DNA of 61,339 nt, filler included. It is 5 parts of 5 records of this genome, joined end to end, with 100 filler letters (N's around TTAATTAATTAA, not from the genome) between each part and the next. Parts side by side here need not be neighbours in the genome. Positions count along the whole stretch, not along the records: positions 13,140 to 35,698 come from SRR20825006_510; 4 more parts are not named here. One strand, written 5' to 3'. Position 1 is the stretch's first letter, and each line of letters starts with the position of its first letter. The notes under the pieces were generated by a model that did not search any database, had not been told where the DNA came from, and saw only the letters and a list, made by a program, of their open reading frames with translations. Positions 13,040 to 52,414 of the stretch are shown in pieces. Position numbers and translations under genes: made by a program.

Positions 13040-13139
13040 NNNNNNNNNNNNNNNNNNNNNNNNNNNNNNNNNNNNNNNNNNNNTTAATTAATTAANNNNN
13101 NNNNNNNNNNNNNNNNNNNNNNNNNNNNNNNNNNNNNNN
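13040..13139. other. artificial contig spacer
   Basis: 100-nt N run with TTAATTAATTAA. Confidence 0.99.
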
Positions 13140-13144
13140 ACAGT

Positions 13145-13219
13145 GGCCCGTTCGTCTATCGGTTAGGACGTCAGGTTTTCAACCTGAAAAGAGGGGTTCG
13201 ACTCCCCTACGGGCTGCCA
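13145..13219 (+). tRNA. tRNA-Glu (TTC)
   Basis: Cloverleaf: GGCCCGT/ACGGGCT acceptor stem, TCAGG-TTTTCAA-CCTGA anticodon arm, GGTTCGA T-loop, encoded CCA. Confidence 0.97.
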
Positions 13220-13224
13220 CTTGT
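13204..13224 (+). repeat. att core, tRNA side: CCCCTACGGGCTGCCACTTGT
   Basis: tRNA 3' end plus 5 nt; identical to 23820-23840. Confidence 0.95.
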
Positions 13225-13229
13225 CCATA

Positions 13230-14321
13230 TTATTCCTTTACTTTCAGTTGCTTGCCAGAAGTTTTGTCCAACTTGGATTGAAGGTTGGACACGTTTTTCG
13301 CTGTCAGCTTGGCAAATCCGCTGTCAGCTAGGCCGGATCGGTTGGCCTTCTTGGTGTAGGTCGCCGCCTCCTTGGTGTCGGTGTGCGCAAGGTAGGAAGC
13401 GATCTCCCATTCACTGGCCCCAGCGTTCGCCAAGCGTGTTGCACCAGCCTTGCGCAGGCCGTGCAATGATCCGGGAACACCAGCATCTACGCACCGTGCG
13501 CGGAACCAGTTTCCCAGAGACGCCACCTTGTACGGCGCATCCTTGTGGTCCAGCGTGATGAACAGCATCCGGTCGGCTGGCACGTTCAACAATTCCTCGG
13601 CCAGTTCCGGCAGGATCGGCAGATCGGCTGCGACCGATGTTTTGCCGCGACGGTAGGCAATGCGATCAACGCCATCCTTGCGGCTCACCAGTTGCTTGCC
13701 AGCCCGTGCAAGGTCTTGTCGTGCCATGCCCGTGTTCAGCGCCAGCAACAGCACCAACCGCGCTTTGGTCCCCGCACCATGACAAGCAAGAAACCGTTCG
13801 ACCTCATCATCCGTCCATGTGTGATAGCCGTCCGGGTTGGTCTTGCGTTTCTCTGCAAACTTGGCGGGGTTTGGCCCCGTGTAGTCCAGTTTCTTCGCCG
13901 CAAAATTGTACAGCATCGACAAGTTCTTTTTGACTGTGTTCGCCGCCTGCGGCCCGTCCTTCTTCGACATAATCGCTTCGATGTGACGGACCTTGAGCGT
14001 GTCGAAGTGGTATTTGCCCGCTTCAATGCGCAGCCAATCAAGTTCCTGCCGGATCGTGCGGCGTCGGCTGTCAGACAGGTTCTTGAACCGGACGCTGCCC
14101 AGATACTGTTCCACCAGCCATGACAGCGAACCACGGGCAACCGTGGATCGGATCGGGGCTTTGACCCCAGCCAATGCCGCTTCATAGGCGGCGCGAAATT
14201 CGGGGGAACCATAGGCACCTGGCAGATATGTATCGACCGGCGCTTTGCGGAACCGCCACATGACAGTGCCGTGACGGCTCACTGTCCGTGAAACATGGGG
14301 GAAGGGATTGCGGCGGGCCAT
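13230..14321 (-). CDS. int: tyrosine recombinase/integrase
   Basis: Catalytic set present: TGMARQD (R), HGLRK (HxxR), LAHT (H), TYT (Y). Confidence 0.95.
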   Translation of the reverse strand: MARRNPFPHVSRTVSRHGTVMWRFRKAPVDTYLPGAYGSPEFRAAYEAALAGVKAPIRSTVARGSLSWLVEQYLGSVRFKNLSDSRRRTIRQELDWLRIEAGKYHFDTLKVRHIEAIMSKKDGPQAANTVKKNLSMLYNFAAKKLDYTGPNPAKFAEKRKTNPDGYHTWTDDEVERFLACHGAGTKARLVLLLALNTGMARQDLARAGKQLVSRKDGVDRIAYRRGKTSVAADLPILPELAEELLNVPADRMLFITLDHKDAPYKVASLGNWFRARCVDAGVPGSLHGLRKAGATRLANAGASEWEIASYLAHTDTKEAATYTKKANRSGLADSGFAKLTAKNVSNLQSKLDKTSGKQLKVKE

Positions 14322-14500
14322 CAGAGTAAATCATCCGGGTCCGGTGCGACCGACTTGGACGCGCCTTCGATAGAAGTCAGGACAACAATGGTGCCGTCCT
14401 TTTCGATCCGCGCCGCAGCCACAGAGAGACCAGCCGCTAGCATACCTTTGGCGGCGCGCGTCACGTCTGACTGTTTGAATTGTGCGGTGCGGTTGCTCAT
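14321..14500 (-). CDS. 59-aa putative excisionase/recombination directionality factor (MSNRTAQFKQSDVTRAAKG...)
   Basis: Hand-translated; TGATG overlap with the int start; function inferred from position. Confidence 0.6.
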   Translation of the reverse strand: MSNRTAQFKQSDVTRAAKGMLAAGLSVAAARIEKDGTIVVLTSIEGASKSVAPDPDDLL

Positions 14501-15027
14501 TAGTCAGCGTTCAGCGCCAAAGACGCAGCCATAATCGAATGTTTCATGAACATTGCGGATGCAAGCCGTGCAACCATTGTTCCAACTGGCAAGACCAATG
14601 CCGCATCACCAGTGAAACTACCCATTTCGCTCGCATCTCTGAACCAATGGACGACCGGGCGATTGTCCCGGATTTCCACTCGCATGATCGCATCTATGTT
14701 CATCTCGCCAGCAATGACATTTCTGTAAATTTCATCGACATAGGCAAATAGGACGTGAGGCGATTCAGGATCGTCGTCCAACTGAACACCAAACCTAGCC
14801 AGACGATCAAAGATAATGTTCCAGACCAGATGCATCCCGGTGTAATCAACAGAGGCCCGAATGCGGCCGTCCTGCTCACGCATCGCCATCACCTTTCCAG
14901 CCTTCAATCGCGCCCGCAATGTACTCTGGTTAACGCCAATCGTTGCCGCTGCCGACGCCCCCGACTCAAGGACAGTGCCCCAATTCGAATGAAGGAAGGT
15001 CAGTGCTTCTTTGGTAAAATTGTTCAT
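14500..15027 (-). CDS. 175-aa hypothetical protein with an N-terminal HTH-like segment
   Basis: AAGGAG RBS before ATG 15027; ASAAATIGVNQSTLRARLKAG resembles an HTH; TAATG coupling to the next gene. Confidence 0.6.
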   Translation of the reverse strand: MNNFTKEALTFLHSNWGTVLESGASAAATIGVNQSTLRARLKAGKVMAMREQDGRIRASVDYTGMHLVWNIIFDRLARFGVQLDDDPESPHVLFAYVDEIYRNVIAGEMNIDAIMRVEIRDNRPVVHWFRDASEMGSFTGDAALVLPVGTMVARLASAMFMKHSIMAASLALNAD

Positions 15028-15046
15028 GTGGAATCTCCTTTGGTTG

Positions 15047-15080
15047 ACTGTATTTCCATTTAGGTTGACAGTCAACCTAA
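15047..15080 (-). promoter_or_regulatory. sigma70 promoter overlapped by a 21-bp palindromic operator
   Basis: TTGACT(15075-70)-17 bp-TACAGT(15052-47); palindrome TTAGGTTGAC-A-GTCAACCTAA at 15060-15080. Confidence 0.7.
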
Positions 15081-15104
15081 TTAAATTGTCAGTCACCCAA
15101 ACAA

Positions 15105-15341
15105 TCACCCAATGACCCGGCGTTCCGCCGTCTTGATCACATGCTCCAGCATCGCCAGCCCTGTCTTGTCCGGGTTGTGGTAGTCGCCTGCGTCGAAGCA
15201 GGTCGCGTGTGCAATCTTGCGCAGGTCGGCATATGTCACTGGACGGCGATATGCCCGCCACAGACGGAACCGCTGCCACCGGGCGCGAAGTCCCTTTCCT
15301 GTCAAATAGGTTTGACCACGAAATGTAATTGATTTTGTCAT
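15105..15341 (-). CDS. hypothetical protein (78 aa)
   Basis: ATGA overlap with the upstream ORF; lies in the leftward operon. Confidence 0.55.
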   Translation of the reverse strand: MTKSITFRGQTYLTGKGLRARWQRFRLWRAYRRPVTYADLRKIAHATCFDAGDYHNPDKTGLAMLEHVIKTAERRVIG

Positions 15342-15550
15342 GTCAGTTTCCCCGCATCGAAACGATCAAGAAATTCAAAAGCCTGTTTTTCTGCCAAGGT
15401 TGGCGTCAGATCAAAATTGGAGTGTTGGGACAGCGCATATCTCGCAATCGACAGTTCACGAGCGCAGTTGCGCAGCACGTCGATCATGTCTTTAGGTTGA
15501 CAGTTATCGTTCGCCAAAACGGCGTTATTGTCGGTCATGGTGTTCTCCAT
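15338..15550 (-). CDS. hypothetical protein (~66-70 aa)
   Basis: GGAG RBS before the MTDNN start; coupled to its neighbours. Confidence 0.55.
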   Translation of the reverse strand: MENTMTDNNAVLANDNCQPKDMIDVLRNCARELSIARYALSQHSNFDLTPTLAEKQAFEFLDRFDAGKLT

Positions 15551-15553
15551 TGG

Positions 15554-15703
15554 TCAGGTTGCTGGGGTTTCGGTGCGTTCCATCCGTTCGCGGATCGCTC
15601 GGATGATTTCAGAGTTCTGGCTGGACACGTTCGCCGCAGCCTGTGCAGCAATCCAATCCTTTAGGTCAGGGGGCAGACGTAGCTGCAATTGCTTAGGTTT
15701 CAT
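15554..15703 (-). CDS. Arc-family ribbon-helix-helix regulator, 49 aa (MKPKQLQLRLPPDLKDWIAAQAAANVSSQNSEIIRAIRERM...)
   Basis: Hand-translated; GGAGG RBS; LRLP..LK..I...A..N..S.N.EI Arc pattern; absent from the ORF track. Confidence 0.85.
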   Translation of the reverse strand: MKPKQLQLRLPPDLKDWIAAQAAANVSSQNSEIIRAIRERMERTETPAT

Positions 15704-15716
15704 GTCAACCTCCATA

Positions 15717-15794
15717 CATATCACAATGCGACTATCGCAAAGTGCGAGTATTGCGTCAAGAGAAATATCATATCACAAAGCGATGATCGCAAAG
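15717..15794. promoter_or_regulatory. duplicated operator block between divergent Arc genes
   Basis: 26-bp direct repeat, 23/26 identical (15717-15742, 15769-15794), built from ATCRC-AAW-GYGAY-like units; TTGACG-17-GATAGT leftward promoter candidate. Confidence 0.65.
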
Positions 15795-15803
15795 GGATAC
15801 ATC

Positions 15804-16097
15804 ATGAGCGACGAACCATCAAAGAAACAAGACCAGTTTATCGTTAGATTTCCAGACGGTATGCGTGACAAGATCAAGGATGCCGCAGACCAGAACAACC
15901 GCAGCATGAACGCGGAAATTGTTTTGGCGCTGGAAGATTGGTTGACAAAAAATTCCAAAGAACAGATCGAAGCGCAACAACTGCGTGATGCCGCCAAGCA
16001 CATGATGAAGGAACGCAGTATGATCGAAGTTCGGCTTGCCGATATTCTCGCAAGGCTGGACCACATTGAAGCCCGTAGAGAACCTGAGAAGAAATGA
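15804..16097 (+). CDS. Arc-family DNA-binding repressor with C-terminal coiled coil (97 aa)
   Basis: QDQFIVRFPDGMRDKIKDAADQNNRSMNAEIV. Confidence 0.88.
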   Translation: MSDEPSKKQDQFIVRFPDGMRDKIKDAADQNNRSMNAEIVLALEDWLTKNSKEQIEAQQLRDAAKHMMKERSMIEVRLADILARLDHIEARREPEKK

Positions 16098-16324
16098 CGC
16101 CGGACTATCAAACCACTCTGAAAACGAATGATGCCGCCAAACTGCTGGGACGGTTAGCCGCGCGGATTGAAGCTGACCCATACGATTCCGCCAGCCGTAG
16201 TGCTTCCTTGGCAGTTGCCACTGCCATAAGCACAGGGTCCGGTAACATAGTAACTTTGTTCCTCACTGAAAAAGAGAAACAAGCCTGCATAGCCGCTGAA
16301 AGAGATTTTCGAGTAATCAAATAG
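16094..16324 (+). CDS. hypothetical protein (76 aa)
   Basis: ATGA overlap with the Arc repressor gene. Confidence 0.5.
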   Translation: MTPDYQTTLKTNDAAKLLGRLAARIEADPYDSASRSASLAVATAISTGSGNIVTLFLTEKEKQACIAAERDFRVIK

Positions 16325-16491
16325 GCCGGGACCATCCAGCCCCGGCCCAGACCAGCCCCGGTGCAGAACCGTGCTGGCCTCGCGCCACGCCCTCCAAAGG
16401 AATTGAAGGCCGCGCCTTGTCGGGGTTTACCCACTCACCGACGAACGGGGTTGCTTCTGGTCTTATCCCCAAGGCGCAACCCGCCTATCTC

Positions 16492-17568
16492 TTAAATGGC
16501 GGCGTCGCCCTTACCCCAATCCACCAGCTTCAACGCCTGCTCAGGATCGACACCCGCCTCTTTCGCCAGCGCCAGCGTCTGCACAATCGCGCCCAAGGCC
16601 CGCGCACGGCCACCAGCATCGAATGCTTGCAAGGGTCGCATCACATCCAGCTTGACGGGACTGCCCAGCTTTTCGGATGCCTCTTGCGCAATCATCGCCG
16701 CCACCGGCATGAGCGCCCATTGGGCAAGGTGCCTTTGCGCCTCTCTGACCATCGGTCCAGTGGTGGCGATGTTGCTCAGACCGGGCAAAACTCCATAGGC
16801 CATTTCGATGCCAGCCCGTGCCGCCGCCCATGTTTCGCGCGTCATGGCTTTGGACAGATCGGGCGTTACATCCTGAGACTTCCAATCTTGCACAGGTGCC
16901 GCCGCGCCCGCCGCCACCACGTTGACAGATTCGCGGATCAGCACCCGGCCACGATTGCCACGGAACCCACGGGCCAGCGCATCCATGTCTTGCTCAGGTG
17001 CCTCAGGGAATGGCACAATCTGCGAGCCGATAGGCGCGTTGTTGTAGACTTCGGACAGCGCCGTTTCCATCACATGCAACAGACCCGCCGTCAGCCGCGC
17101 CCGCCGCAGAGGCGACGAACCAACATAAGGCATGGTCATTTCCGAGCCGATACGCAGGTGCAGTACCTCGCCCGCCAGGACGGTCATAGTCTGCCCACCG
17201 CCCGCGTCGGGGATGCCGACACGATAGGCGACAGGCTTGGAAAAGCGCGTGGTCAAATCCCAATCCGAGCAAGGCAACAGCCCGTCCTCTTGGATCACAA
17301 ACACCGCTTCACCGCGCAAGGCCAGCGACCGCGCAGCAAGCGCCAGCATGGCCGGGGTCAGCAGATCGGTGCCGTCCACATCCGCCAGCATCAAGCCCCC
17401 TTCCCAGAGGGACACGCAGCCTTGGACACAGCCCGTAAGTTCGGCCACGCCATCAACGCCGCTGATATAATCGGCCCGCGCCGCCATGACTTGGCTGGTG
17501 TATCCGGTACCGCTGGACCGGGTTTCGACTTCGGCAATTTCTTGCACACGTTTCTTGAATGGCCACAT
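16492..17568 (-). CDS. phage portal protein (HK97-like)
   Basis: SLALRGEAV, EVLHLR, GSSPL, AYGVLP pattern; start MWPFKK coupled to the upstream stop. Confidence 0.8.
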   Translation of the reverse strand: MWPFKKRVQEIAEVETRSSGTGYTSQVMAARADYISGVDGVAELTGCVQGCVSLWEGGLMLADVDGTDLLTPAMLALAARSLALRGEAVFVIQEDGLLPCSDWDLTTRFSKPVAYRVGIPDAGGGQTMTVLAGEVLHLRIGSEMTMPYVGSSPLRRARLTAGLLHVMETALSEVYNNAPIGSQIVPFPEAPEQDMDALARGFRGNRGRVLIRESVNVVAAGAAAPVQDWKSQDVTPDLSKAMTRETWAAARAGIEMAYGVLPGLSNIATTGPMVREAQRHLAQWALMPVAAMIAQEASEKLGSPVKLDVMRPLQAFDAGGRARALGAIVQTLALAKEAGVDPEQALKLVDWGKGDAAI

Positions 17569-18113
17569 CACTTTGCCCTCCGATAATTGCGCAGCAGATC
17601 GCCAGCGCCTGAATACTGCATCGCACGCGCCACCCATGCCGGGTTGCGGTTCAACGATTCCTCGATAGGCCCAATGGAAACGGACGTGCTGGACGCCCCA
17701 GCCGTTCCCGGATCGTCTGCCAAATATTCGGCAAGCCGCCGGAAAGCCTCGTTCACGGGCGCAGGCACATCACCAGCGCCAACTTGGGCGGTGACGCGAT
17801 AGAAACCTGCACCTTGCAGACAGATGCCAATAGGCGCGTCCAAGAGCGTGATCGGTTCCCATGCGCCATCAATCCAAAACTCTGCCATCTGCGACACCAC
17901 AGGCGTCAGAGGTGGTGCCCAGATCGCCCCCGTGGTGCCTTCAATGATCCAAGTCACATCGCGTTCAGTGAACCGATAGGCGGTGTAGCTTTCGATCCTT
18001 GCCCAGATCGCATCGGCACTCAGCGCCGCCGCCGCCGTAGACAGGCCAGCAGGCACATCAGGATAAGCATCGGGTGTTTCCTCAATCTGTTTCAAAACGT
18101 CGATCATGTTCAT
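17568..18113 (-). CDS. putative head-tail connector/adaptor (gp6/gp15-like)
   Basis: RIESYT..F.ER, VPAPV.EA..RLAEY, C-terminal LLRNYRR; position in the head module. Confidence 0.6.
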   Translation of the reverse strand: MNMIDVLKQIEETPDAYPDVPAGLSTAAAALSADAIWARIESYTAYRFTERDVTWIIEGTTGAIWAPPLTPVVSQMAEFWIDGAWEPITLLDAPIGICLQGAGFYRVTAQVGAGDVPAPVNEAFRRLAEYLADDPGTAGASSTSVSIGPIEESLNRNPAWVARAMQYSGAGDLLRNYRRAK

Positions 18114-18748
18114 GCCCTCCAACGGTTGCGATGATTGCTGGGCAGAATTACCCCGCCGGGGGTGGCCACGTCCCACGAACGCGACTCAATCTGCGTTTCT
18201 GGATATGCTGGACGGGTCACAATCGACATTTCGTAGAGCAAGGCTGAAAGAACCGTGCGAATGATCGCATTGAACGCCCCGTTTTCAGGGTCAGTGCCTT
18301 CATCCTCAATCATTTCAGGCTGAGGAACGCGCCGCTTTGGGGGCAGACGAAAACCCGGTGAAATACCGATAGCCAAGCCCGCAGCAACCGCCGCAAGGAT
18401 ATCTTTGACATAGGATACCTCTTGCATTTCTTCGGTGATCGTCGCGGTGAAGGTCACGCCCGCATCACTGTCTTGAATGTCCAACGTACCAGAGCGCACA
18501 GACGCCAAGGGCCGGTCATAGCTATGGCCCGCCAGCAGGTGAATGTCTTTCTTGCCGCCGTGGTCGGATGGTGTGTTGATCCGATAGGCAAAGGCGCGGG
18601 GCGCAATCACCTCTTTCTTTGGCCTGCCGGTGCGGCCCCCATCGCTGAGGACCGCCCGTTTGCCGTAGGGAAAAGAGCCTTGCAGCGCCAGCGCGCCGGA
18701 TGCTCTCTTGCGTAGTTCCAGACCGCCGCCTGCAAAGCCCTCCAGCAT
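18110..18748 (-). CDS. HK97-family prohead maturation protease
   Basis: EVIAPRAF, LLAGH, GISPGF, LYEMSIVTRPAYPET. Confidence 0.9.
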   Translation of the reverse strand: MLEGFAGGGLELRKRASGALALQGSFPYGKRAVLSDGGRTGRPKKEVIAPRAFAYRINTPSDHGGKKDIHLLAGHSYDRPLASVRSGTLDIQDSDAGVTFTATITEEMQEVSYVKDILAAVAAGLAIGISPGFRLPPKRRVPQPEMIEDEGTDPENGAFNAIIRTVLSALLYEMSIVTRPAYPETQIESRSWDVATPGGVILPSNHRNRWRA

Positions 18749-20037
18749 TATGCAGCCGCCAATTGAATGTCGTTCAAGATGCGAGTTTGCACCGGACGCG
18801 CCACCGTCTGATCCATCGTTGCAAGCGCTGTAATCCGCAGCCCGCCTGATTGTGCATCGGTGTACACATCACGGATCAGATCCACCGCGCCCCATGTGCC
18901 GACAAAGACAGGTGCAACGCCGCCGGTAGACGTGGACAGGATCATGCTAGTGGCCAAGGGATCACCAGAAGGGGCAGGCAAGCCATTCGACGTGACATTG
19001 ATGTTTTGCGGGAATGTCCCGGTGACACCACGCCCAGCCAAAAGGAATGCAAGTCGATAGTATTCAGTCGTTTGCGTGACTGTGTTCAACGTGCCTTCCA
19101 GCTTGCCGAACAATTCCGGCCGCATCAGAGCGCGAATCTGCCCCGGCGATGTAATCGCGTTCGACGTCATGAACGCCACAACCTCATCCAGAAAGTTCTG
19201 GTACGTCGGTTCGTCACTCACATCGGTTTCAGTGATGCCGTAAGTCGATGCACCTGTGACAATGCCCAGAGGTTCGCCACCGGACCCCGCGCCCATAAAG
19301 ATCGCACGATCCATTTCTTGTGCCATCGCCCCGTTCATGTCTCGACGCACGGCCTGTTCAAGCGCAGCGCCCGATTGTTTGAGCGCCTTGCGGCTGATCC
19401 GCATTTGAATGCCCATCGTGTGATCGGGCTTCATGGCACGGTCAGTGGTGGTGTACTGAGTCGGGCCAGCGACGTTGCCGCCCTCAGTTGATGCCCAGCC
19501 TGCCGAGACGCTGGAAGTCGTCACCGGCCACTCGATTTCGCCGGACCCGATGCTGATCATCTGTGCGCCCATCTTTGCGGCCACACTGTCAGGAAACAGG
19601 CGGTCGATGATCGGGCGGGTCTGGATCGGGTCAGGTGTGCCACTGGACACCGTGTTGCGCACCTCAAGTGCATCCCAAGGAACCGGTATGCCGCGATATC
19701 CCCCTTGGCTGCGCAGCTCAGAAACGATTTCTTGCGTGCGGCCATCCAGTGCGCGGCCCTCATCAAGATTCAGCGCAACCTGGCGCATCTCGAAACCGGC
19801 CATCATGTCCGACCATTCTTTGTCAGAACGGGTTTCCAGTTCGGCCCCGGCGTCCCGGCGTTCCTCATCCTCAGACACCAGAGCGGCACGATACTGCACC
19901 TCTTTGGCCCGATATTCGGTATCCAGTTCGCCCATCTTGCGGGTTTCGTCCTCAGATGGCTTTTCGATGTTCGCCAGTTCCGACAGCGATTGACGGATTT
20001 CAGAGCGGCGCAGTTCCAGCTTTTTAGATGTCAGCAT
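18748..20037 (-). CDS. major capsid protein, HK97 fold with N-terminal delta domain
   Basis: Coiled-coil N-terminus; AGWASTEG, ISRKALKQS, DRAIFMGAG...PLGI. Confidence 0.9.
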   Translation of the reverse strand: MLTSKKLELRRSEIRQSLSELANIEKPSEDETRKMGELDTEYRAKEVQYRAALVSEDEERRDAGAELETRSDKEWSDMMAGFEMRQVALNLDEGRALDGRTQEIVSELRSQGGYRGIPVPWDALEVRNTVSSGTPDPIQTRPIIDRLFPDSVAAKMGAQMISIGSGEIEWPVTTSSVSAGWASTEGGNVAGPTQYTTTDRAMKPDHTMGIQMRISRKALKQSGAALEQAVRRDMNGAMAQEMDRAIFMGAGSGGEPLGIVTGASTYGITETDVSDEPTYQNFLDEVVAFMTSNAITSPGQIRALMRPELFGKLEGTLNTVTQTTEYYRLAFLLAGRGVTGTFPQNINVTSNGLPAPSGDPLATSMILSTSTGGVAPVFVGTWGAVDLIRDVYTDAQSGGLRITALATMDQTVARPVQTRILNDIQLAAA

Positions 20038-20353
20038 TTGTTTTTCCTTTCATGCTCGACAGAAGGTCACGCCATTGCTGGCGCTTTGGAGAAAGCGGGG
20101 TGTGACCCACTTCCAATCTCGTTTTGCGCGCATGACAGCGCCCGCAGAGAATTTGTAAATTCGACAGGGTGTAAGACAGGTCAGGCCGATCCCGGACGGG
20201 CAGAACGTGGTCACATTCCAGCCGCCGCCGTTCGCCGCACTGAACGCACTGCCAGCCGTCACGGTCCAGCGCCTGCATCCGCAGAGCCTTCCAGCGCGGC
20301 CCGCGTGTGACCTTGGCAGAGTGCCGCTTGTATTCGTCGCGCAGCCTGCTCAT
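20024..20353 (-). CDS. HNH endonuclease (HK97 gp74-like packaging factor)
   Basis: RW..LR...L.RD...CVQC, DHVLP, NLQILCGRCHARKT. Confidence 0.92.
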   Translation of the reverse strand: MSRLRDEYKRHSAKVTRGPRWKALRMQALDRDGWQCVQCGERRRLECDHVLPVRDRPDLSYTLSNLQILCGRCHARKTRLEVGHTPLSPKRQQWRDLLSSMKGKTNADI

Positions 20354-20700
20354 GCCGTCACCTGCATGTCGTAACAGATCGTCACGCCGTCCGGCCCAAG
20401 GATGCCAACCCGCTTGATCTCATAGGTCTTGCCACCGATCACCAGCGTGTCAGACTTCATTGGCACCACATCCGCCACGGCCATGAACACGCGCAGATCA
20501 GAAACTCCGATCAGGGTGCCGTCCATGTCCTCGATGCTGTATTCAGTCACCGCGACCACCACCGGATATTCCAGCGGTTCATTCGGTTCGGCGGGTGGAT
20601 CGTCCCACGGATTTTGCGGTTCGTCCGGTTCGGTGGACGGTTTCACCAGCGTTGCCGCCTGCCCGAAACGATTGATCAGTTTCGTGGCTGTTTGCGTCAT
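20350..20700 (-). CDS. putative head-closure/head-completion protein
   Basis: ~116 aa, beta-rich; LINRFG, DGTLI..D, DTLVIGGKTYEI; coupled to terL and HNH. Confidence 0.55.
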   Translation of the reverse strand: MTQTATKLINRFGQAATLVKPSTEPDEPQNPWDDPPAEPNEPLEYPVVVAVTEYSIEDMDGTLIGVSDLRVFMAVADVVPMKSDTLVIGGKTYEIKRVGILGPDGVTICYDMQVTA

Positions 20701-22232
20701 TACCCCCATGCCAGTCGTCCTTTCGCTTGTGTTGGTGCGTGGCTCATTCGGACACCCTGAGCGACGGCCAGAACCGTCGCTGCAACCGGATCAATCCGAC
20801 CCGTAGAGCGGCCAGCGGCCAGCTTGTGATTGCCCGCCGGATCAACCAGCGTGATTGCGTCGGAAAATGCAGAGCGCAGCAGCAGCGACGGCATGGCCTT
20901 CACCTCGCCCTCGAACACGGCACGGCGCAGGCGTTCGCAATCCTCAGAGCCGTCTTTCCATCCGAACCCGCGCCAGATGAACGGCACCCGATCAAGGCCC
21001 GCATCGCGCAGAGCCTCTAGAAATTCAGCGTGGCGGAACCTGTCACCAACGATTGCCACCGGGCTTTGCCCGTCCAGCTTGGTCACAACGTCAGCCATGA
21101 ACCGGGCGACCGGCACAGTTGCGTCACCCATCGTCACCAGTTCGCCACGGTCAGCCATTTCAATGTACCTCTGGCCCACGCCGTCAGCCTGCCCACGATC
21201 CCCAAGACCGGGCTTGCAAGGGAAAGCCCCGACACATTCCAGCCGTGACGTTTCGGGCCAGTACATCGCCGCCGCAGACATTGACCGCGACCCGCCGAGG
21301 TCGATGCCCAGAACAACAGGCCCGGAACGTGGGGGCAGATCGTCGGGCGATACCTCGCAGGACAGCCATTCATCGACGGTCAACAACACCGACCGGTTGT
21401 CAGAGGCGACCCGTTCATTGCGATTAAGGTTTCGGAAGCTGGACAGTGCAGAGCCGCCCCGTGCGATTGCCCGCCGCGCCTGCGCCACCAGCCATTCCGC
21501 AGAGGGGCCAATACCCTCAGACGCGCCGGGGTTCGCCACCAGCAGGCTTGCCAGATCGTCAGGCGGCAAGCCGGGGTCAGGGCGATGTTCTTGCACATAA
21601 GTGCCGGGCGGCGGTTCATCCATCCAGCGTGAAAACGTGTTCGCATCGTCGGGGGCGGATGTGCTGATAATCAAGGCGCGGCCATCGCGCTTGCCCAGCC
21701 CGGACAGGATGGCGTTTTCCAGCGCGTCACCCTTGTCTCGTTCCCATGCAGCACGTTCATCTAGGATTGCCAGCGTCGGCGCACCGCCGAGAATAGACTT
21801 GCCGTCAGCCGCAATCACCCGCGCAAGCCCGCCGCCGTTCTCAGAGGTTTCGACTTCCAGCTTTGACCCGCGCCGGATCGTGAATTGTTCCTGTTCGTTC
21901 TCTGGCAAGCCCTCGATGAAACCCAAGAGGAACCCGAAGGCCGTCTTGGCTTGGTCCCGGTTCCGAGCCGCAAAGATGATTTCACGTTTCGGTTGCGGTG
22001 CAATTTCGCCCATCAGATGCCCTAGAGCGATGCCTGCCGACAGACTGGTTTTCGCGTTGCCGCGACCGATCGACAGAATGCCCGCTTCGATGCCCTTGGC
22101 GAACGCCCCCCGCACGAAGTCTTTCTGATATGTCGCCAGTTTGACCCGCTTGCCCGCCAACCGACCCTCAGGAACGATCAGCTTGGGAAGGAAACGCAGC
22201 GCCGCCGATGCCTCTTTGGATGCCCTAACCAT
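20700..22232 (-). CDS. terL: terminase large subunit
   Basis: YQ motif, Walker A GRGNAKT, Walker B AILDE, IISTS motif III, GIDLG nuclease motif, RIDP. Confidence 0.92.
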   Translation of the reverse strand: MVRASKEASAALRFLPKLIVPEGRLAGKRVKLATYQKDFVRGAFAKGIEAGILSIGRGNAKTSLSAGIALGHLMGEIAPQPKREIIFAARNRDQAKTAFGFLLGFIEGLPENEQEQFTIRRGSKLEVETSENGGGLARVIAADGKSILGGAPTLAILDERAAWERDKGDALENAILSGLGKRDGRALIISTSAPDDANTFSRWMDEPPPGTYVQEHRPDPGLPPDDLASLLVANPGASEGIGPSAEWLVAQARRAIARGGSALSSFRNLNRNERVASDNRSVLLTVDEWLSCEVSPDDLPPRSGPVVLGIDLGGSRSMSAAAMYWPETSRLECVGAFPCKPGLGDRGQADGVGQRYIEMADRGELVTMGDATVPVARFMADVVTKLDGQSPVAIVGDRFRHAEFLEALRDAGLDRVPFIWRGFGWKDGSEDCERLRRAVFEGEVKAMPSLLLRSAFSDAITLVDPAGNHKLAAGRSTGRIDPVAATVLAVAQGVRMSHAPTQAKGRLAWG

Positions 22233-22235
22233 GAT

Positions 22236-22320
22236 TTTTCCCCCAAATTTTTGGGAGAGAGAAAGCAAGACCCCCCACCGCGACCGCAGCCCCTCCCCAA
22301 AAGGGGAGCATTGGGACCTT
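22236..22320 (-). other. putative cos/packaging site
   Basis: GGGGAGGGG..CGCGGTGGGGGG..CTTTCTCTCTCCCAAAAATTT directly upstream of terL; resembles cos regions of HNH-dependent phages (from memory). Confidence 0.45.
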
Positions 22321-22424
22321 ATATGGCGTTGAAGTCAGAGAGAAATTTCCTTCTATGGGATACTGATCTGTCGTCACGACGATCTCCAATATTATACATG
22401 AGTTAGCGTTATGTTGTAACAACT

Positions 22425-22842
22425 ATTTTTCTAGACATACTCCCGCACCCGCTACTGTCCCCCTCTACACAAGGATTAGTTCCTTGCTCGGCTGACAGTC
22501 CTACCTTCCTGATCCGTATCCACGCGATGCCCTGTATCGGGGGCCAGCCGCTGTCCCGCTGGGTTCTCTCCAGCCCCGTCCTTTGCAGCCTTGCGCCGGT
22601 ACGGTCCCCGCACTGAGGCGGTGGGTTTCTTAGTCGCGTTTCTGAGCGGCCTAGTAGGCACTGGTTCCGCTCGGAGTGGGTTAAAAGTTCCCGGATCATA
22701 TCCCCGCCGATTTCGCTCGACGGTCAAAAGCTAGAACGTGGCCCGCGTCCGGTGATGTGCCCCTATGGGTATGCTCACTATGAACGCGGGCTGTTGCTTC
22801 ACCCGTGACGCGACTGCCGCTCTACAGCAGCGCCACGGGCGG
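22425..22842 (-). ncRNA. candidate large structured RNA / replication origin region
   Basis: Continuous series of hairpins; no credible protein ORF. Confidence 0.45.
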
Positions 22843-23094
22843 TTAGCTTTCGATCAAGTCGAAGTCGCCCCCATCGTCGCTGTCAGGCGCGAACAGGTCA
22901 TTGACCAACCCGTGCATGACAGACAGTTGTTTCGTGGAAGGGGTCCAGCCCCGGCGGCGCGACTGTCCTATGACGGACTTCGCAAAGTTCTTGGACCATT
23001 CGTCAGTAGCCAAGCGGGCGACGGTCGGCATGTGATAGATCAGGCGGTCCACTTCATCATCGGCCTGGAAGGGTTTGCGGTGTTGATACGTCAT
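22843..23094 (-). CDS. hypothetical protein (83 aa; DEWSKNFAKSV..Q.RRRGWTPSTKQ)
   Basis: GAGG RBS, ATGA coupling. Confidence 0.7.
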   Translation of the reverse strand: MTYQHRKPFQADDEVDRLIYHMPTVARLATDEWSKNFAKSVIGQSRRRGWTPSTKQLSVMHGLVNDLFAPDSDDGGDFDLIES

Positions 23095-23360
23095 GCCAGC
23101 ACCTCCCCATCCAGAACCCCGAACAGAGCCATAGAGGCCGCGCGATATGCGGTGTCGTCGTCCAGGGTGACCAGAGCCGCGCAGGCCAGCGCCTCGCGCT
23201 CCCCTACGGTCAGACGTGCGGTCAGGACGGTTACGAACCCTTCCCAAGCCTCGGAGTTCGCCACGGTCAGGACGTACCCGAATGCTTTAGCTGCCCGCTT
23301 GTGACGATCCTCTGCGAACAGGTTCATGGCGTTGGGGCGGGGAATGTGGTGGATGCTCAT
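23091..23360 (-). CDS. hypothetical protein (89 aa)
   Basis: ATGA coupling at both ends. Confidence 0.65.
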   Translation of the reverse strand: MSIHHIPRPNAMNLFAEDRHKRAAKAFGYVLTVANSEAWEGFVTVLTARLTVGEREALACAALVTLDDDTAYRAASMALFGVLDGEVLA

Positions 23361-23575
23361 GCCGACTTCCCCCCGATCTTGAAGGGACGCTTGGTCAAAC
23401 CGGCAGTTACCTTTGCATCAGCGATTGCCGATTCACGGCAGGACCAGCGGCGCAGGCGTGTCTTGAGGCTCTTGCCGGGGCAAGGCGTGATCAGCACCAC
23501 GTCGAAGTAGCGGCCCGCCTTATTCACGGTGTAGTAGCTGGTCGCCGCCGTGGGCAGCTTGGTGATGTTGCTCAT
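23357..23575 (-). CDS. hypothetical basic protein (72 aa, MSNITKLPTAA...)
   Basis: ATGA coupling at both ends. Confidence 0.65.
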   Translation of the reverse strand: MSNITKLPTAATSYYTVNKAGRYFDVVLITPCPGKSLKTRLRRWSCRESAIADAKVTAGLTKRPFKIGGKSA

Positions 23576-23840
23576 GCCGCCACCCCGCAGAAATGCCGCA
23601 GGATAATTGCTGGCGCTCCGGCCCATTCCGGGCTATCGTTGCCGGGAAACTCGACCGTTTCTTTACTGCCCTTTACGCCGTTGAACCCTGCAAGGTTCGC
23701 GGCGTTTTTTTTTGCCGGTGTCCGGTTGGGCAAACCGGAATTTTCCCCAATGCTTTCAATGGGGCTGATTTGGTAGGTTGGGATTCCCAACCCGTTGTTA
23801 TCTTTAGGGTAATTTTGCCCCCCTACGGGCTGCCACTTGT
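23572..23840 (-). CDS. att-split ORF: 3' part of a 90-aa frame whose RBS and ATG lie at the other end of the element (13238-13226)
   Basis: In-frame join across the att core in the reconstructed attP; stop coupled (ATGA) to the next gene. Confidence 0.55.
23820..23840 (+). repeat. att core, distal copy
   Basis: Identical 21 bp to 13204-13224. Confidence 0.95.
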
Positions 23841-23900
23841 TCTTCCCTCCACAATTGAGACGCGCACGCCCCCAGGGGCGCGAAATAATGCGCGTCACAC

Positions 23901-24926
23901 CTACCCCGCTTGCTGCGAGGTTGGCTCGTTCGTGTCCAGGCCGCGGCGCAGTGCCGGGCTGTAGAAGGTCTGGCGGCCCCGCCCTGCCCGTTTCGAGGCA
24001 TAGAGCGCCACATCCACGTCATCGAGCAGGCTGCGCATGTCCGCACCCGATCCGGGCTCAAAGAACACGGTGCCGATGCTGGCCGAAATGCAGCAATCGT
24101 TGCCCTCGAACGGCATCGGCACCTCGAGCCGTTTGATCAGGCGGCTGCCGATGCGGCGCAGGGCGGGGATGTCGCGCACGTCAGGCAGGACGATCACGAA
24201 TTCATCGCCGCCCAATCGCGCCACCGTGTCTTCGCTGCGGGTTTCGTCCACCATGATTCGGGCCACGGTTTGCAGCACATGGTCGCCCGCCGCATGGCCC
24301 AGCGTGTCATTGACCAGTTTGAAGAAATCCAGGTCCAGTTGCATCAGCGCAAACTGCGTGCCCCGTTCCAGCGCGCGCGCCATGACGTGATCCATCGCGC
24401 GGCGGTTTTTCAGCCCCGTCAGCGTGTCGGTGAACGCCTGTTCCTCGGCGGCGATCATCGCCCCCTGCAGGCGCAGGTTCAGCTTGCGCCAGGCTTCCAT
24501 CGCGGTTGATTTCGCCTCGACCAGATAGAGCATTTCCGTGGCCAGGTCCGTGGGAGCGAAATCGGCATGGGTCAGGTCATAGGTGCGCACTCCGTCCACC
24601 ACCGAGATGCCAAAGGACAGGTTCACGATCAGCACCCCGTCGGGCCCGCAGGCCACGGCCACGCCCTTGAGTTCGGTCACCGGAGAATCGCGCAGTTGCA
24701 GGTGCAGCTTGATCCCCGCACTGTCGCGCAGGTCGTTCATGCTGGTCACGGTGCGCGGCCGTTTCAGGGCAAACACCTCGAGAAATCGGGCGCCGACCCA
24801 GTCCAGATCGGGGCGCAGTTTGCGCAGGGTGTCGCCCACGTGGATAATGTGGCCCGTGTGATTGATCATCACATGCATCGGGCACAGCACGTCCAGCACG
24901 TCGGACATGTTGTCCGGGCCGGTCAC
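23901..24926 (-). CDS. diguanylate cyclase with N-terminal PAS/HNOBA-like domain
   Basis: TDTLTGLKNRR, DLDFFK..ND..GH, RLGGDEF. Confidence 0.9.
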   Translation of the reverse strand: MTGPDNMSDVLDVLCPMHVMINHTGHIIHVGDTLRKLRPDLDWVGARFLEVFALKRPRTVTSMNDLRDSAGIKLHLQLRDSPVTELKGVAVACGPDGVLIVNLSFGISVVDGVRTYDLTHADFAPTDLATEMLYLVEAKSTAMEAWRKLNLRLQGAMIAAEEQAFTDTLTGLKNRRAMDHVMARALERGTQFALMQLDLDFFKLVNDTLGHAAGDHVLQTVARIMVDETRSEDTVARLGGDEFVIVLPDVRDIPALRRIGSRLIKRLEVPMPFEGNDCCISASIGTVFFEPGSGADMRSLLDDVDVALYASKRAGRGRQTFYSPALRRGLDTNEPTSQQAG

Positions 24927-35698: not shown

Positions 35699-35798
35699 NN
35701 NNNNNNNNNNNNNNNNNNNNNNNNNNNNNNNNNNNNNNNNNNTTAATTAATTAANNNNNNNNNNNNNNNNNNNNNNNNNNNNNNNNNNNNNNNNNNNN
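35699..35798. other. artificial contig spacer
   Basis: N run with TTAATTAATTAA. Confidence 0.99.
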
Positions 35799-44401: not shown

Positions 44402-44501
44402 NNNNNNNNNNNNNNNNNNNNNNNNNNNNNNNNNNNNNNNNNNNNTTAATTAATTAANNNNNNNNNNNNNNNNNNNNNNNNNNNNNNNNNNNNNNNNNNN
44501 N
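44402..44501. other. artificial contig spacer
   Basis: N run with TTAATTAATTAA. Confidence 0.99.
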
Positions 44502-52314: not shown

Positions 52315-52414
52315 NNNNNNNNNNNNNNNNNNNNNNNNNNNNNNNNNNNNNNNNNNNNTTAATTAATTAANNNNNNNNNNNNNNNNNNNNNNNNNNNNNN
52401 NNNNNNNNNNNNNN
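52315..52414. other. artificial contig spacer
   Basis: N run with TTAATTAATTAA. Confidence 0.99.

Follow-up and report, generated by a model that had tools for sequence, protein, structure and literature searches.

A tRNA-Glu island and the split gene at its ends

The stretch of DNA analysed here (the window; 61,339 nt, filler included) consists of five contigs joined by N44-TTAATTAATTAA-N44 linkers at 13040-13139, 35699-35798, 44402-44501 and 52315-52414. As these are five separate contigs, the flanks across the linkers are not true genomic neighbours. The contig of interest (SRR20825006_510, positions 13140-35698) starts 5 nt ahead of a tRNA-Glu gene, so that host DNA on the tRNA side lies outside the window; several high-depth tRNA-Glu contigs in the runs holding it suggest that the contig break reflects a repeated tRNA gene. 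Inserted in this tRNA gene is an island of 10.6 kb, bounded by 21-bp direct repeats (13204-13224 and 23820-23840), which are the two copies of the attachment (att) core. The subject of this text is a small gene, here called the junction gene, whose two pieces lie at opposite ends of the island and form one open reading frame (ORF) when the ends are joined as attP, the att site of the free form. The features at these ends are as follows.

13145-13219, plus strand: tRNA-Glu(ttc), intact, at attL (ARAGORN; Rfam tRNA, 58.8 bits)
13204-13224, no strand: 21-bp core as present at attL, comprising the final 16 nt of the tRNA gene and 5 nt more (direct-repeat match)
13226-13238, minus strand: 5' piece of the junction gene, with AAGGA at 13238-13234 and ATG at 13228-13226, 1 nt past the stop of the integrase gene (int)
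13230-14321, minus strand: tyrosine integrase, 363 amino acids (aa) (Pfam PF00589, E 2e-11)
23572-23819, minus strand: 3' piece of the junction gene, made up of a variable linker (23819-23725) and a conserved core of ~50 aa (23724-23575)
23676-23713, plus strand: intrinsic-terminator-like hairpin (23676-23704) with a run of nine Ts (23705-23713) (consensus scan; covariation; columns 118-155 of alignment A3)
23820-23840, no strand: attR copy of the 21-bp core (direct-repeat match)
23896-23898, minus strand: host-derived in-frame GTG, 2 nt past the stop of the host gene
23901-24926, minus strand: host gene, ending 2 nt before the GTG at 23898

In an Rfam scan of the window, tRNA alone was matched. 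The int gene ends with TAA at 13232-13230 on the minus strand, and a ribosome-binding site and an ATG stand just before the att core, as a preliminary description of this DNA had noted and as can be read directly in the sequence. Direct reading likewise bears out its statement that in the integrated state the frame from this ATG goes antisense into the tRNA gene, where it meets a TAA after 21 sense codons. When the ends were joined as attP, by a script working from coordinates, the ATG came into frame with 23819-23575 to give an ORF of 90 codons, whose stop (TGA, 23574-23572) overlaps the next ATG as ATGA; the joined ORF and its overlap had been described before and are thus reproduced. Three further ORFs follow the junction gene, each joined by ATGA, in keeping with the chain of three coupled ORFs previously proposed, and this chain is also consistent with the earlier observation that all genes but the Arc gene and its partner lie on the minus strand. 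Both caveats raised at that time are present in the sequence, namely the in-frame host GTG at 23898 and a TATAAT upstream of terL. Translational coupling from the host gene to the split ORF via this GTG is possible in principle in the host of the window. A consensus scan of the gene strand scored nothing terminator-like from int to the junction ORF.

Conservation of the junction gene among related elements

The conserved C-terminal part of the small protein (~50 residues) was matched by 16/16 candidate database proteins at E<=0.01. Family copies were found at 11 viral (IMG/VR) loci and 16 metagenome loci, in 7/401 genomes of the family sample and in 28/401 genomes of the order sample (core-only model, E<=0.01); a single genome (G552:C1) has four motif copies, at 1779163, 2774663, 2811727 and 2852643. 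I40, H44 and G47 are invariant among 17 aligned cores (alignment A2). The window carries the family signature P-x-I-[IL]-x-x-H-[FW]-x-G near the stop and, ~35 codons upstream, the hairpin-encoding part 'ENxxA...G' (alignments A1 and A2), and the overlap of the stop with the next ATG as ATGA is common to the window, L012, L014, L007 and L009. In the last 25 codons, seven differences were counted by eye between L012 and the window, all at third positions, and the variable columns of the C-terminal part of alignment A3 (22 DNA sequences), picked by eye, are spaced in multiples of three. This third-position variation indicates that the C-terminal core is under selection at the protein level. The N-terminal parts of the database proteins are mutually unrelated, and several are translated antisense tRNA. 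No counterpart of the family was found in Pfam, PHROGs or the ESM Atlas (best Atlas score 0.80, under the usable level), and the AlphaFold model of the small protein is poor (predicted local distance difference test score, pLDDT, 65.9; predicted template modelling score, pTM, 0.31). Judged by these sequence comparisons, this is an orphan, conserved small-protein family. In many elements (L036/L058, L035/L057, L100-L105 and L108) the hairpin-encoding N-terminal part is fused in frame to the next protein, which has an o89-like domain, and the junction ORFs of these elements have ~150-235 codons.

Two architectures are seen among the relatives. In the A-type, which includes the window, the att core is directly followed by the small gene, with the integrase at the opposite end when the element is integrated. 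In the B-type (L007, L020, L021/L095, L022/L023/L051 and L096), the gene has ~51 codons and its own ATG, and lies inside the element; the conserved core is thus a gene in its own right. The B-type element L007 has int, one other ORF, the small gene ATGA-coupled to an AlpA-like gene, then an AAA_25 helicase and terL, and L020, also B-type, has int, a regulator, the small gene, a small ORF and Prim-Pol. Gene order on the circle is equal in both types, and the position of attP alone differs. Behind the small gene, Prim-Pol/PriCT_2 and AAA_25 are found in the A-type element L014, and AAA_25 in L055. Thus, in relatives the small gene leads a replication module, whereas the region of the window (22843-23575) that compares with 378-2251 of L014 has three small ORFs only and no recognisable replication gene. 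L003, a relative that does not carry the small-gene family, has an attP ORF of only 52 codons, and the first distal gene there starts at an ATG of its own. As it has no comparable junction gene, the arrangement goes with the small-gene family and not with every island of the group.

Reconstruction of attP in homologous elements, a check that the preliminary description itself proposed, was carried out by coordinates wherever both core copies were found (n = 14: the window, L053, L055, L057, L058, L014 with L025, L089, L090, L093, L094, L103, L104, L105 and L108). The att sites of the 14 are in tRNA-Glu, tRNA-Cys (three frames), tRNA-Phe, tRNA-Arg-tct, tRNA-Arg-cct (both orientations) and tRNA-Met, plus one site without a tRNA by ARAGORN. 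A second core copy was not found for L091, L092, L097, L100, L101, L102 and L106, nor within the viral loci, and L109, with a 12-nt repeat only, was not used as having a core. The outcome agrees with the reading made in the window: an in-frame start lies between the integrase stop and the core in 14/14 (ATG in 12, GTG in L058 and L093), and the frame is open through every identified core. The GTG of L058 has AAGGAG 10 nt upstream. In 8/14 (the window, L014, L053, L089, L103, L104, L105 and L108) the start is <=4 nt from the integrase stop or overlaps it. A purine-rich motif containing AGG is found <=11 nt upstream of the start in 9/9 elements read (the window, L014, L053, L055, L057, L058, L089, L090 and L094), and adjoins the ATG in L089. 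The host side of the same 14 junctions has an in-frame ATG before a stop in only 2 (L094 and L104; Fisher p = 0.0004).

Additionally, two database proteins, predicted by others from metagenome contigs, begin like the int-side starts, P0005 as in L053 and P0010 as in L055/L090, so that contiguous molecules of int side, core and gene, or tandem arrays, do exist in metagenomes. A Phe-type pattern scan of viral contigs returned no attP forms. The Glu-type scan of viral contigs had L098/L099 as its sole match, which was rejected as an attP form, its upstream genes being lambda-like head genes and not int.

The preliminary description had further held that integration cuts the distal genes off from their promoter and first ribosome entry, so that recombination itself is the switch. 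The part of this that stands is the separation of start codon and Shine-Dalgarno sequence from the gene body, seen in the 14 rebuilt attP sites; loss of the promoter and switching of all distal genes are hypothetical, and terL has a promoter-like site of its own.

The frame between core and conserved part was examined in 19 A-type sequences with a recognisable core, beginning at the first codon of the core and ending at the conserved motif; 12 further loci, with no recognisable core, were left unclassified. No stop occurs in these 905 codons, versus 26 and 42 in the other two frames, at whose mean rate ~34 would be expected. Different elements read the tRNA-Cys core in different frames, all three being used (as LEASTGIEP..., GGEYRNRTG... 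and WRRVPESNR...). Frame and length are preserved in the linkers: over 53 codons, those of the 5 Phe-type sequences are free of gaps, and a single gap, of 2 codons, is seen in the Glu type. By these comparative tests, the arrangement of the junction ORF across attP is real and conserved, and more than a product of chance. That it is a chance ORF in a non-coding attP arm is scarcely credible: the arm of the window does have lower G+C content, with palindromes and hairpins, its GC by codon position is unremarkable and its protein belongs to no Pfam, PHROG or Atlas family, but the family matches, the rebuilt attP sites and the open-frame counts contradict such an origin.

It is likely, from the sequence comparisons above, that the small gene has the attachment site within its 5' part, with the start and Shine-Dalgarno sequence beside int, so that integration would split the gene and excision would rebuild it, feeding the coupled ORFs. 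A number of observations weigh against this. The 14 elements represent only ~10 att-site/frame classes and are not all independent. Changes in the linker are even across codon positions, with no synonymous excess, so that it is the openness of the linker that would be selected and not its sequence. L049 has a stop within the gene. L098 (= L099), with the same Glu core, has a stop 18 codons after ATG-AAT-AAG and uses its own ATG; in this satellite of the family (L098, 1-6441) the Glu-type core comes after a lambda-like terminase, then portal and a truncated protease, with neither tRNA nor integrase, and the 13 nt preceding the core are identical to the int end of L014. The GAPTRTRV-type elements (L016, L017, L040 and L041), which are outside the 14 rebuilt attP sites, have the integrase in the opposite direction; in L041 (10767-11708) it lies at the far end on the other strand, behind an excisionase-like ORF. 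Tandem islands occur at tRNA-Cys (L018, 1283-2666; L053, G146:C25), with the integrase of the neighbour island directly before the next core and small gene, and the hybrid junction of L018, which uses the integrase of the neighbouring tandem island, has its coupled ATG in another frame. An out-of-frame hybrid is however expected, because the attP of the element itself is a different junction. The IMG/VR provirus records L018 and L024 end exactly at the integrase stop, and their int-side junctions lie outside them. The Logan contigs of runs X1, X3, X4 and X5 include no attP contigs, only integrated junctions and other host flanks, yet contigs drop rare forms, which makes this result uninformative. 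Finally, the off state in the window may leak, through the host GTG at 23898 or through either of two TTG codons that lie in frame within the arm, 15 and 34 codons past the beginning of the core.

An alternative is that the small gene is real and is translated without excision, from an internal TTG or GTG, a non-canonical codon or a host start, the int-side start being unused or giving a short junction peptide only. Consistent with this, both TTG codons of the window are common to L014, the host GTG is 2 nt past the host gene stop, the gene starts at its own ATG in B-type relatives and in L098/L099, and some in-frame GTG, TTG or ATG is present at 7/10 of the first host-side junctions. However, ATG, GTG and TTG are all absent between core and conserved part in 8/19 sequences, and in the remaining ones the internal starts are not conserved across att types. 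On the host side, there is a stop at or beside the core in L017 and L105 and no start of any kind in L016, L038, L040, L055, L057, L058 and L103. Translation without excision would also leave unexplained why the frame is open through every core and why an in-frame ATG is present at 12/14 int ends, and it is considered unlikely.

The opposite-strand hairpin in the small gene offers a further explanation, in which the conserved features serve DNA or RNA, as arm-type integrase sites and as an antisense RNA ending at a terminator, and the open attP frame is a by-product. In the 22 sequences, 97.1% of the hairpin pair cells are standard, versus 69.6% in shuffles and 33-49% in slid controls. Changes on both sides are seen in 7/11 pairs, and the 21 U-G cells would be mismatches on the gene strand. 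These patterns suggest that the hairpin and U-tract are the terminator of an antisense RNA that ends inside the gene. The conserved 'KEN' residues can be put down to the U-tract that encodes them, so the hairpin with its compensatory changes accounts for the 'KEN...' part, and the linker is approximately neutral at the amino-acid level, as this explanation would have it. On the other hand, a constraint on nucleic acid does not bar stops in a single frame (0 versus 26 and 42), does not explain ATGs in the same frame beside ten kinds of core, and does not fit the third-position variation of the C-terminal 25 codons; that the frame is a mere by-product is thus very improbable. A search by eye for an antisense promoter in alignment A3 found a -10-like A/T-rich hexamer at the Ile-Ile codons and no -35, and no promoter is claimed.

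Remaining genes of the island

Between int and the junction gene, the island has the following features.

14321-14500, minus strand: ORF of 59 aa, with a 1-nt end overlap with int; no family match
14500-15279, minus strand: ORF of up to 259 aa, with a 1-nt end overlap with the 59-aa ORF; no family match
15528-16097, plus strand: ORF with an Arc-like ribbon-helix-helix domain, residues 98-143 (Pfam PF03869, E 6.6e-14)
15731-15759, minus strand: promoter-like TTGACG-17-GATAGT with TG before the -10, facing the int operon and opposite the Arc-like gene (consensus scan only)
16322-16349, minus strand: terminator-like hairpin of 12 pairs after the portal gene (consensus scan only)
16492-22268, minus strand: packaging and head module (Pfam; order the same in relatives), made up of the next seven entries
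16492-17637, minus strand: portal (Pfam, 36.3 bits, under the cut-off of 39.1)
17568-18176, minus strand: ORF without an assigned family
18110-18748, minus strand: prohead protease (Peptidase_S78, Pfam)
18748-20037, minus strand: major capsid protein (Phage_capsid, Pfam)
20024-20353, minus strand: HNH (Pfam)
20350-20709, minus strand: head-tail gene (PF05354, E 4e-4, a weak match below the cut-off)
20700-22268, minus strand: terL (Pfam)
22391-22420, minus strand: promoter-like GTTACA-18-TATAAT in the 570-nt gap before terL (consensus scan only, 10/12)
22843-23575, minus strand: three ORFs coupled by ATGA overlaps behind the junction gene (23575-23357, 23360-23091 and 23094-22843)

Relatives of the 59-aa ORF sit before int in L014 and L058, and relatives of the second and third ATGA-coupled ORFs are present in other elements. 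The true start of the Arc-like ORF is probably further inside. An ORF of 179 codons on the plus strand (22765-23304) overlaps the ATGA-coupled ORFs of the minus strand and also has tblastn matches in relatives; it is probably a shadow frame of the ATGA chain. A relative of the island is found in two seawater metagenomes (runs X4 and X5), with 92 differences over 1,310 compared bases of the int region. In this relative, segments are replaced between int and portal (14504-15103 and 15335-16505), and the host flank beyond attR is different.

The accessible part of the text that defines phage-inducible chromosomal islands of the capsid-forming kind (cf-PICIs; PMC10085698) describes islands of ~10 kb with integrase, regulator, HNH, terL, portal, protease, capsid and head-tail genes; the island in the window is similar. 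Judged by its gene content against that definition, as far as the accessible text gives it, the island is a phage satellite that encodes a capsid and is of the cf-PICI kind or like it. The integrase (PF00589) is present, and of the capsid-forming set, terL, portal, Peptidase_S78, Phage_capsid and HNH were found, with a single weak head-tail gene. The window differs in that no AlpA, Prim-Pol, AAA_25 or terS was recognised in it with Pfam and PHROGs, the sole regulator found being the Arc-like one; neither a regulator of AlpA/MerR/Stl type nor the primase-replicase and small terminase of cf-PICIs was detected by these searches. No tail, holin or lysis genes were recognised with Pfam among the 20 ORFs scanned, several small ones of which match no family. 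The E. coli type of cf-PICI has another gene order and another orientation of the integrase than the island studied here. A split gene at attP is not mentioned in the accessible part of the cf-PICI definition (PMC10085698).

Proposed mechanism and relation to known systems

In the circular form, the order would be int, attP, the small gene, the coupled small ORFs (primase and helicase in relatives), and then terL to portal. The int operon would be read after derepression of the promoter opposite the Arc-like gene. In integrated DNA, its transcription and translation would exit into antisense tRNA; integration would have carried the start to the far end of the element, leaving the gene body without a dedicated ribosome entry and the coupled ORFs unfed. 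In excised DNA, transcription from the int operon would run across attP, and ribosomes ending int would re-initiate at the adjacent ATG and pass through core and linker into the small protein, the first codons of the gene being the att core, antisense of the tRNA 3' end. They would then continue into the ATGA-coupled genes or replication-leader module. The protein or its translation may turn on replication or later genes post-excision, and candidate roles of the protein are licensing replication, blocking re-integration and activating a late promoter. Demonstrable coupling to the junction ORF is confined to the three small ORFs of the ATGA chain and, among relatives, to the primase/helicase module. 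Dependence of the packaging genes on the junction gene is doubtful, since terL has its own promoter-like site.

A comparable layout is known from plasmid control of the R1 tap/CopA type, in which a short ORF whose stop overlaps the next start lies before the replication genes and has an antisense-RNA terminator inside it. The present case differs in that the antisense RNA and its promoter are only putative and the peptide is conserved far beyond the needs of coupling.

Tn916 and ICEclc are said to show expression across joined ends. For ICEKp1, expression across the ends joined by excision is described in the accessible part of its report (PMC13023037). These integrative and conjugative elements (ICEKp1, ICEclc and Tn916) resemble the island in that signals at one end serve genes at the other after excision; as far as the accessible sources describe them, it is a promoter that is joined to a complete gene in the ICEs, whereas here coding sequence and translation start are joined.

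In mycobacteriophage BPs, according to the accessible part of the report, attP is within the repressor gene and integration removes a C-terminal degradation tag (PMC4557955). Both systems, on that account, have attP in a protein-coding gene of the element, with products that differ between integrated and free forms and a regulatory state set by recombination (PMC4557955). In BPs, however, the same text has the 3' end exchanged, both forms translated and an active stable protein made on integration (PMC4557955). In the island it is the 5' end, carrying ribosome-binding site and start codon, that is lost, and no product is expected from the integrated form; host, element type (a satellite) and protein are also unrelated.

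The 'suicidal' integrases of SSV-type in archaeal viruses and plasmids have genes that are fragmented on integration and restored in the circle, and thus share with the island a recombination site within a gene split by integration, as given in the accessible part of a review (PMC8371274). There, the split gene is the integrase, and the type is restricted to archaea according to that part of the review (PMC8371274). In the window, the integrase is intact, the split gene is the small ORF after it and the host belongs to Alphaproteobacteria. As in other attP-split genes, the core of the window and of 13 further elements lies inside an ORF that is continuous in the free form only.

In a literature search that had most subscription journals and supplements outside it, no published case was found in which a gene of a satellite or island receives its ribosome-binding site and start codon across attP. 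What is known already is thus attP inside genes and expression across joined ends; what would be new is coding sequence and translation start as the joint.

A wider proposal is put forward tentatively, at somewhat less than even confidence. In a family of tRNA-targeting islands of marine Rhodobacterales, with or without capsid genes, attP may serve as an intragenic joint, at which int ribosomes would re-initiate on tRNA-antisense codons (tRNA-Cys in all three frames) to translate a gene that is complete on excised DNA only and that would, by its product or by being translated, license a primase/helicase module, with a conserved antisense transcript that ends within the gene as a further layer of control. 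It would then be translation that senses excision, and commitment to replication and packaging would come only post-excision.

Mobile elements must avoid replicating or packaging while they are chromosomal, and known solutions are repressors or promoters reading across joined ends. In the present satellite family, described here from roseobacters and Mesorhizobium, the intragenic joint appears to have been kept or re-invented at ~10 different attachment sites, and tRNA-derived att cores can accordingly be under coding constraint. Gene callers are predicted to misplace the first-gene starts of such islands systematically in host DNA or antisense tRNA, as is seen in several database proteins. 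If true, the arrangement would be a simple, testable sensor of excision.

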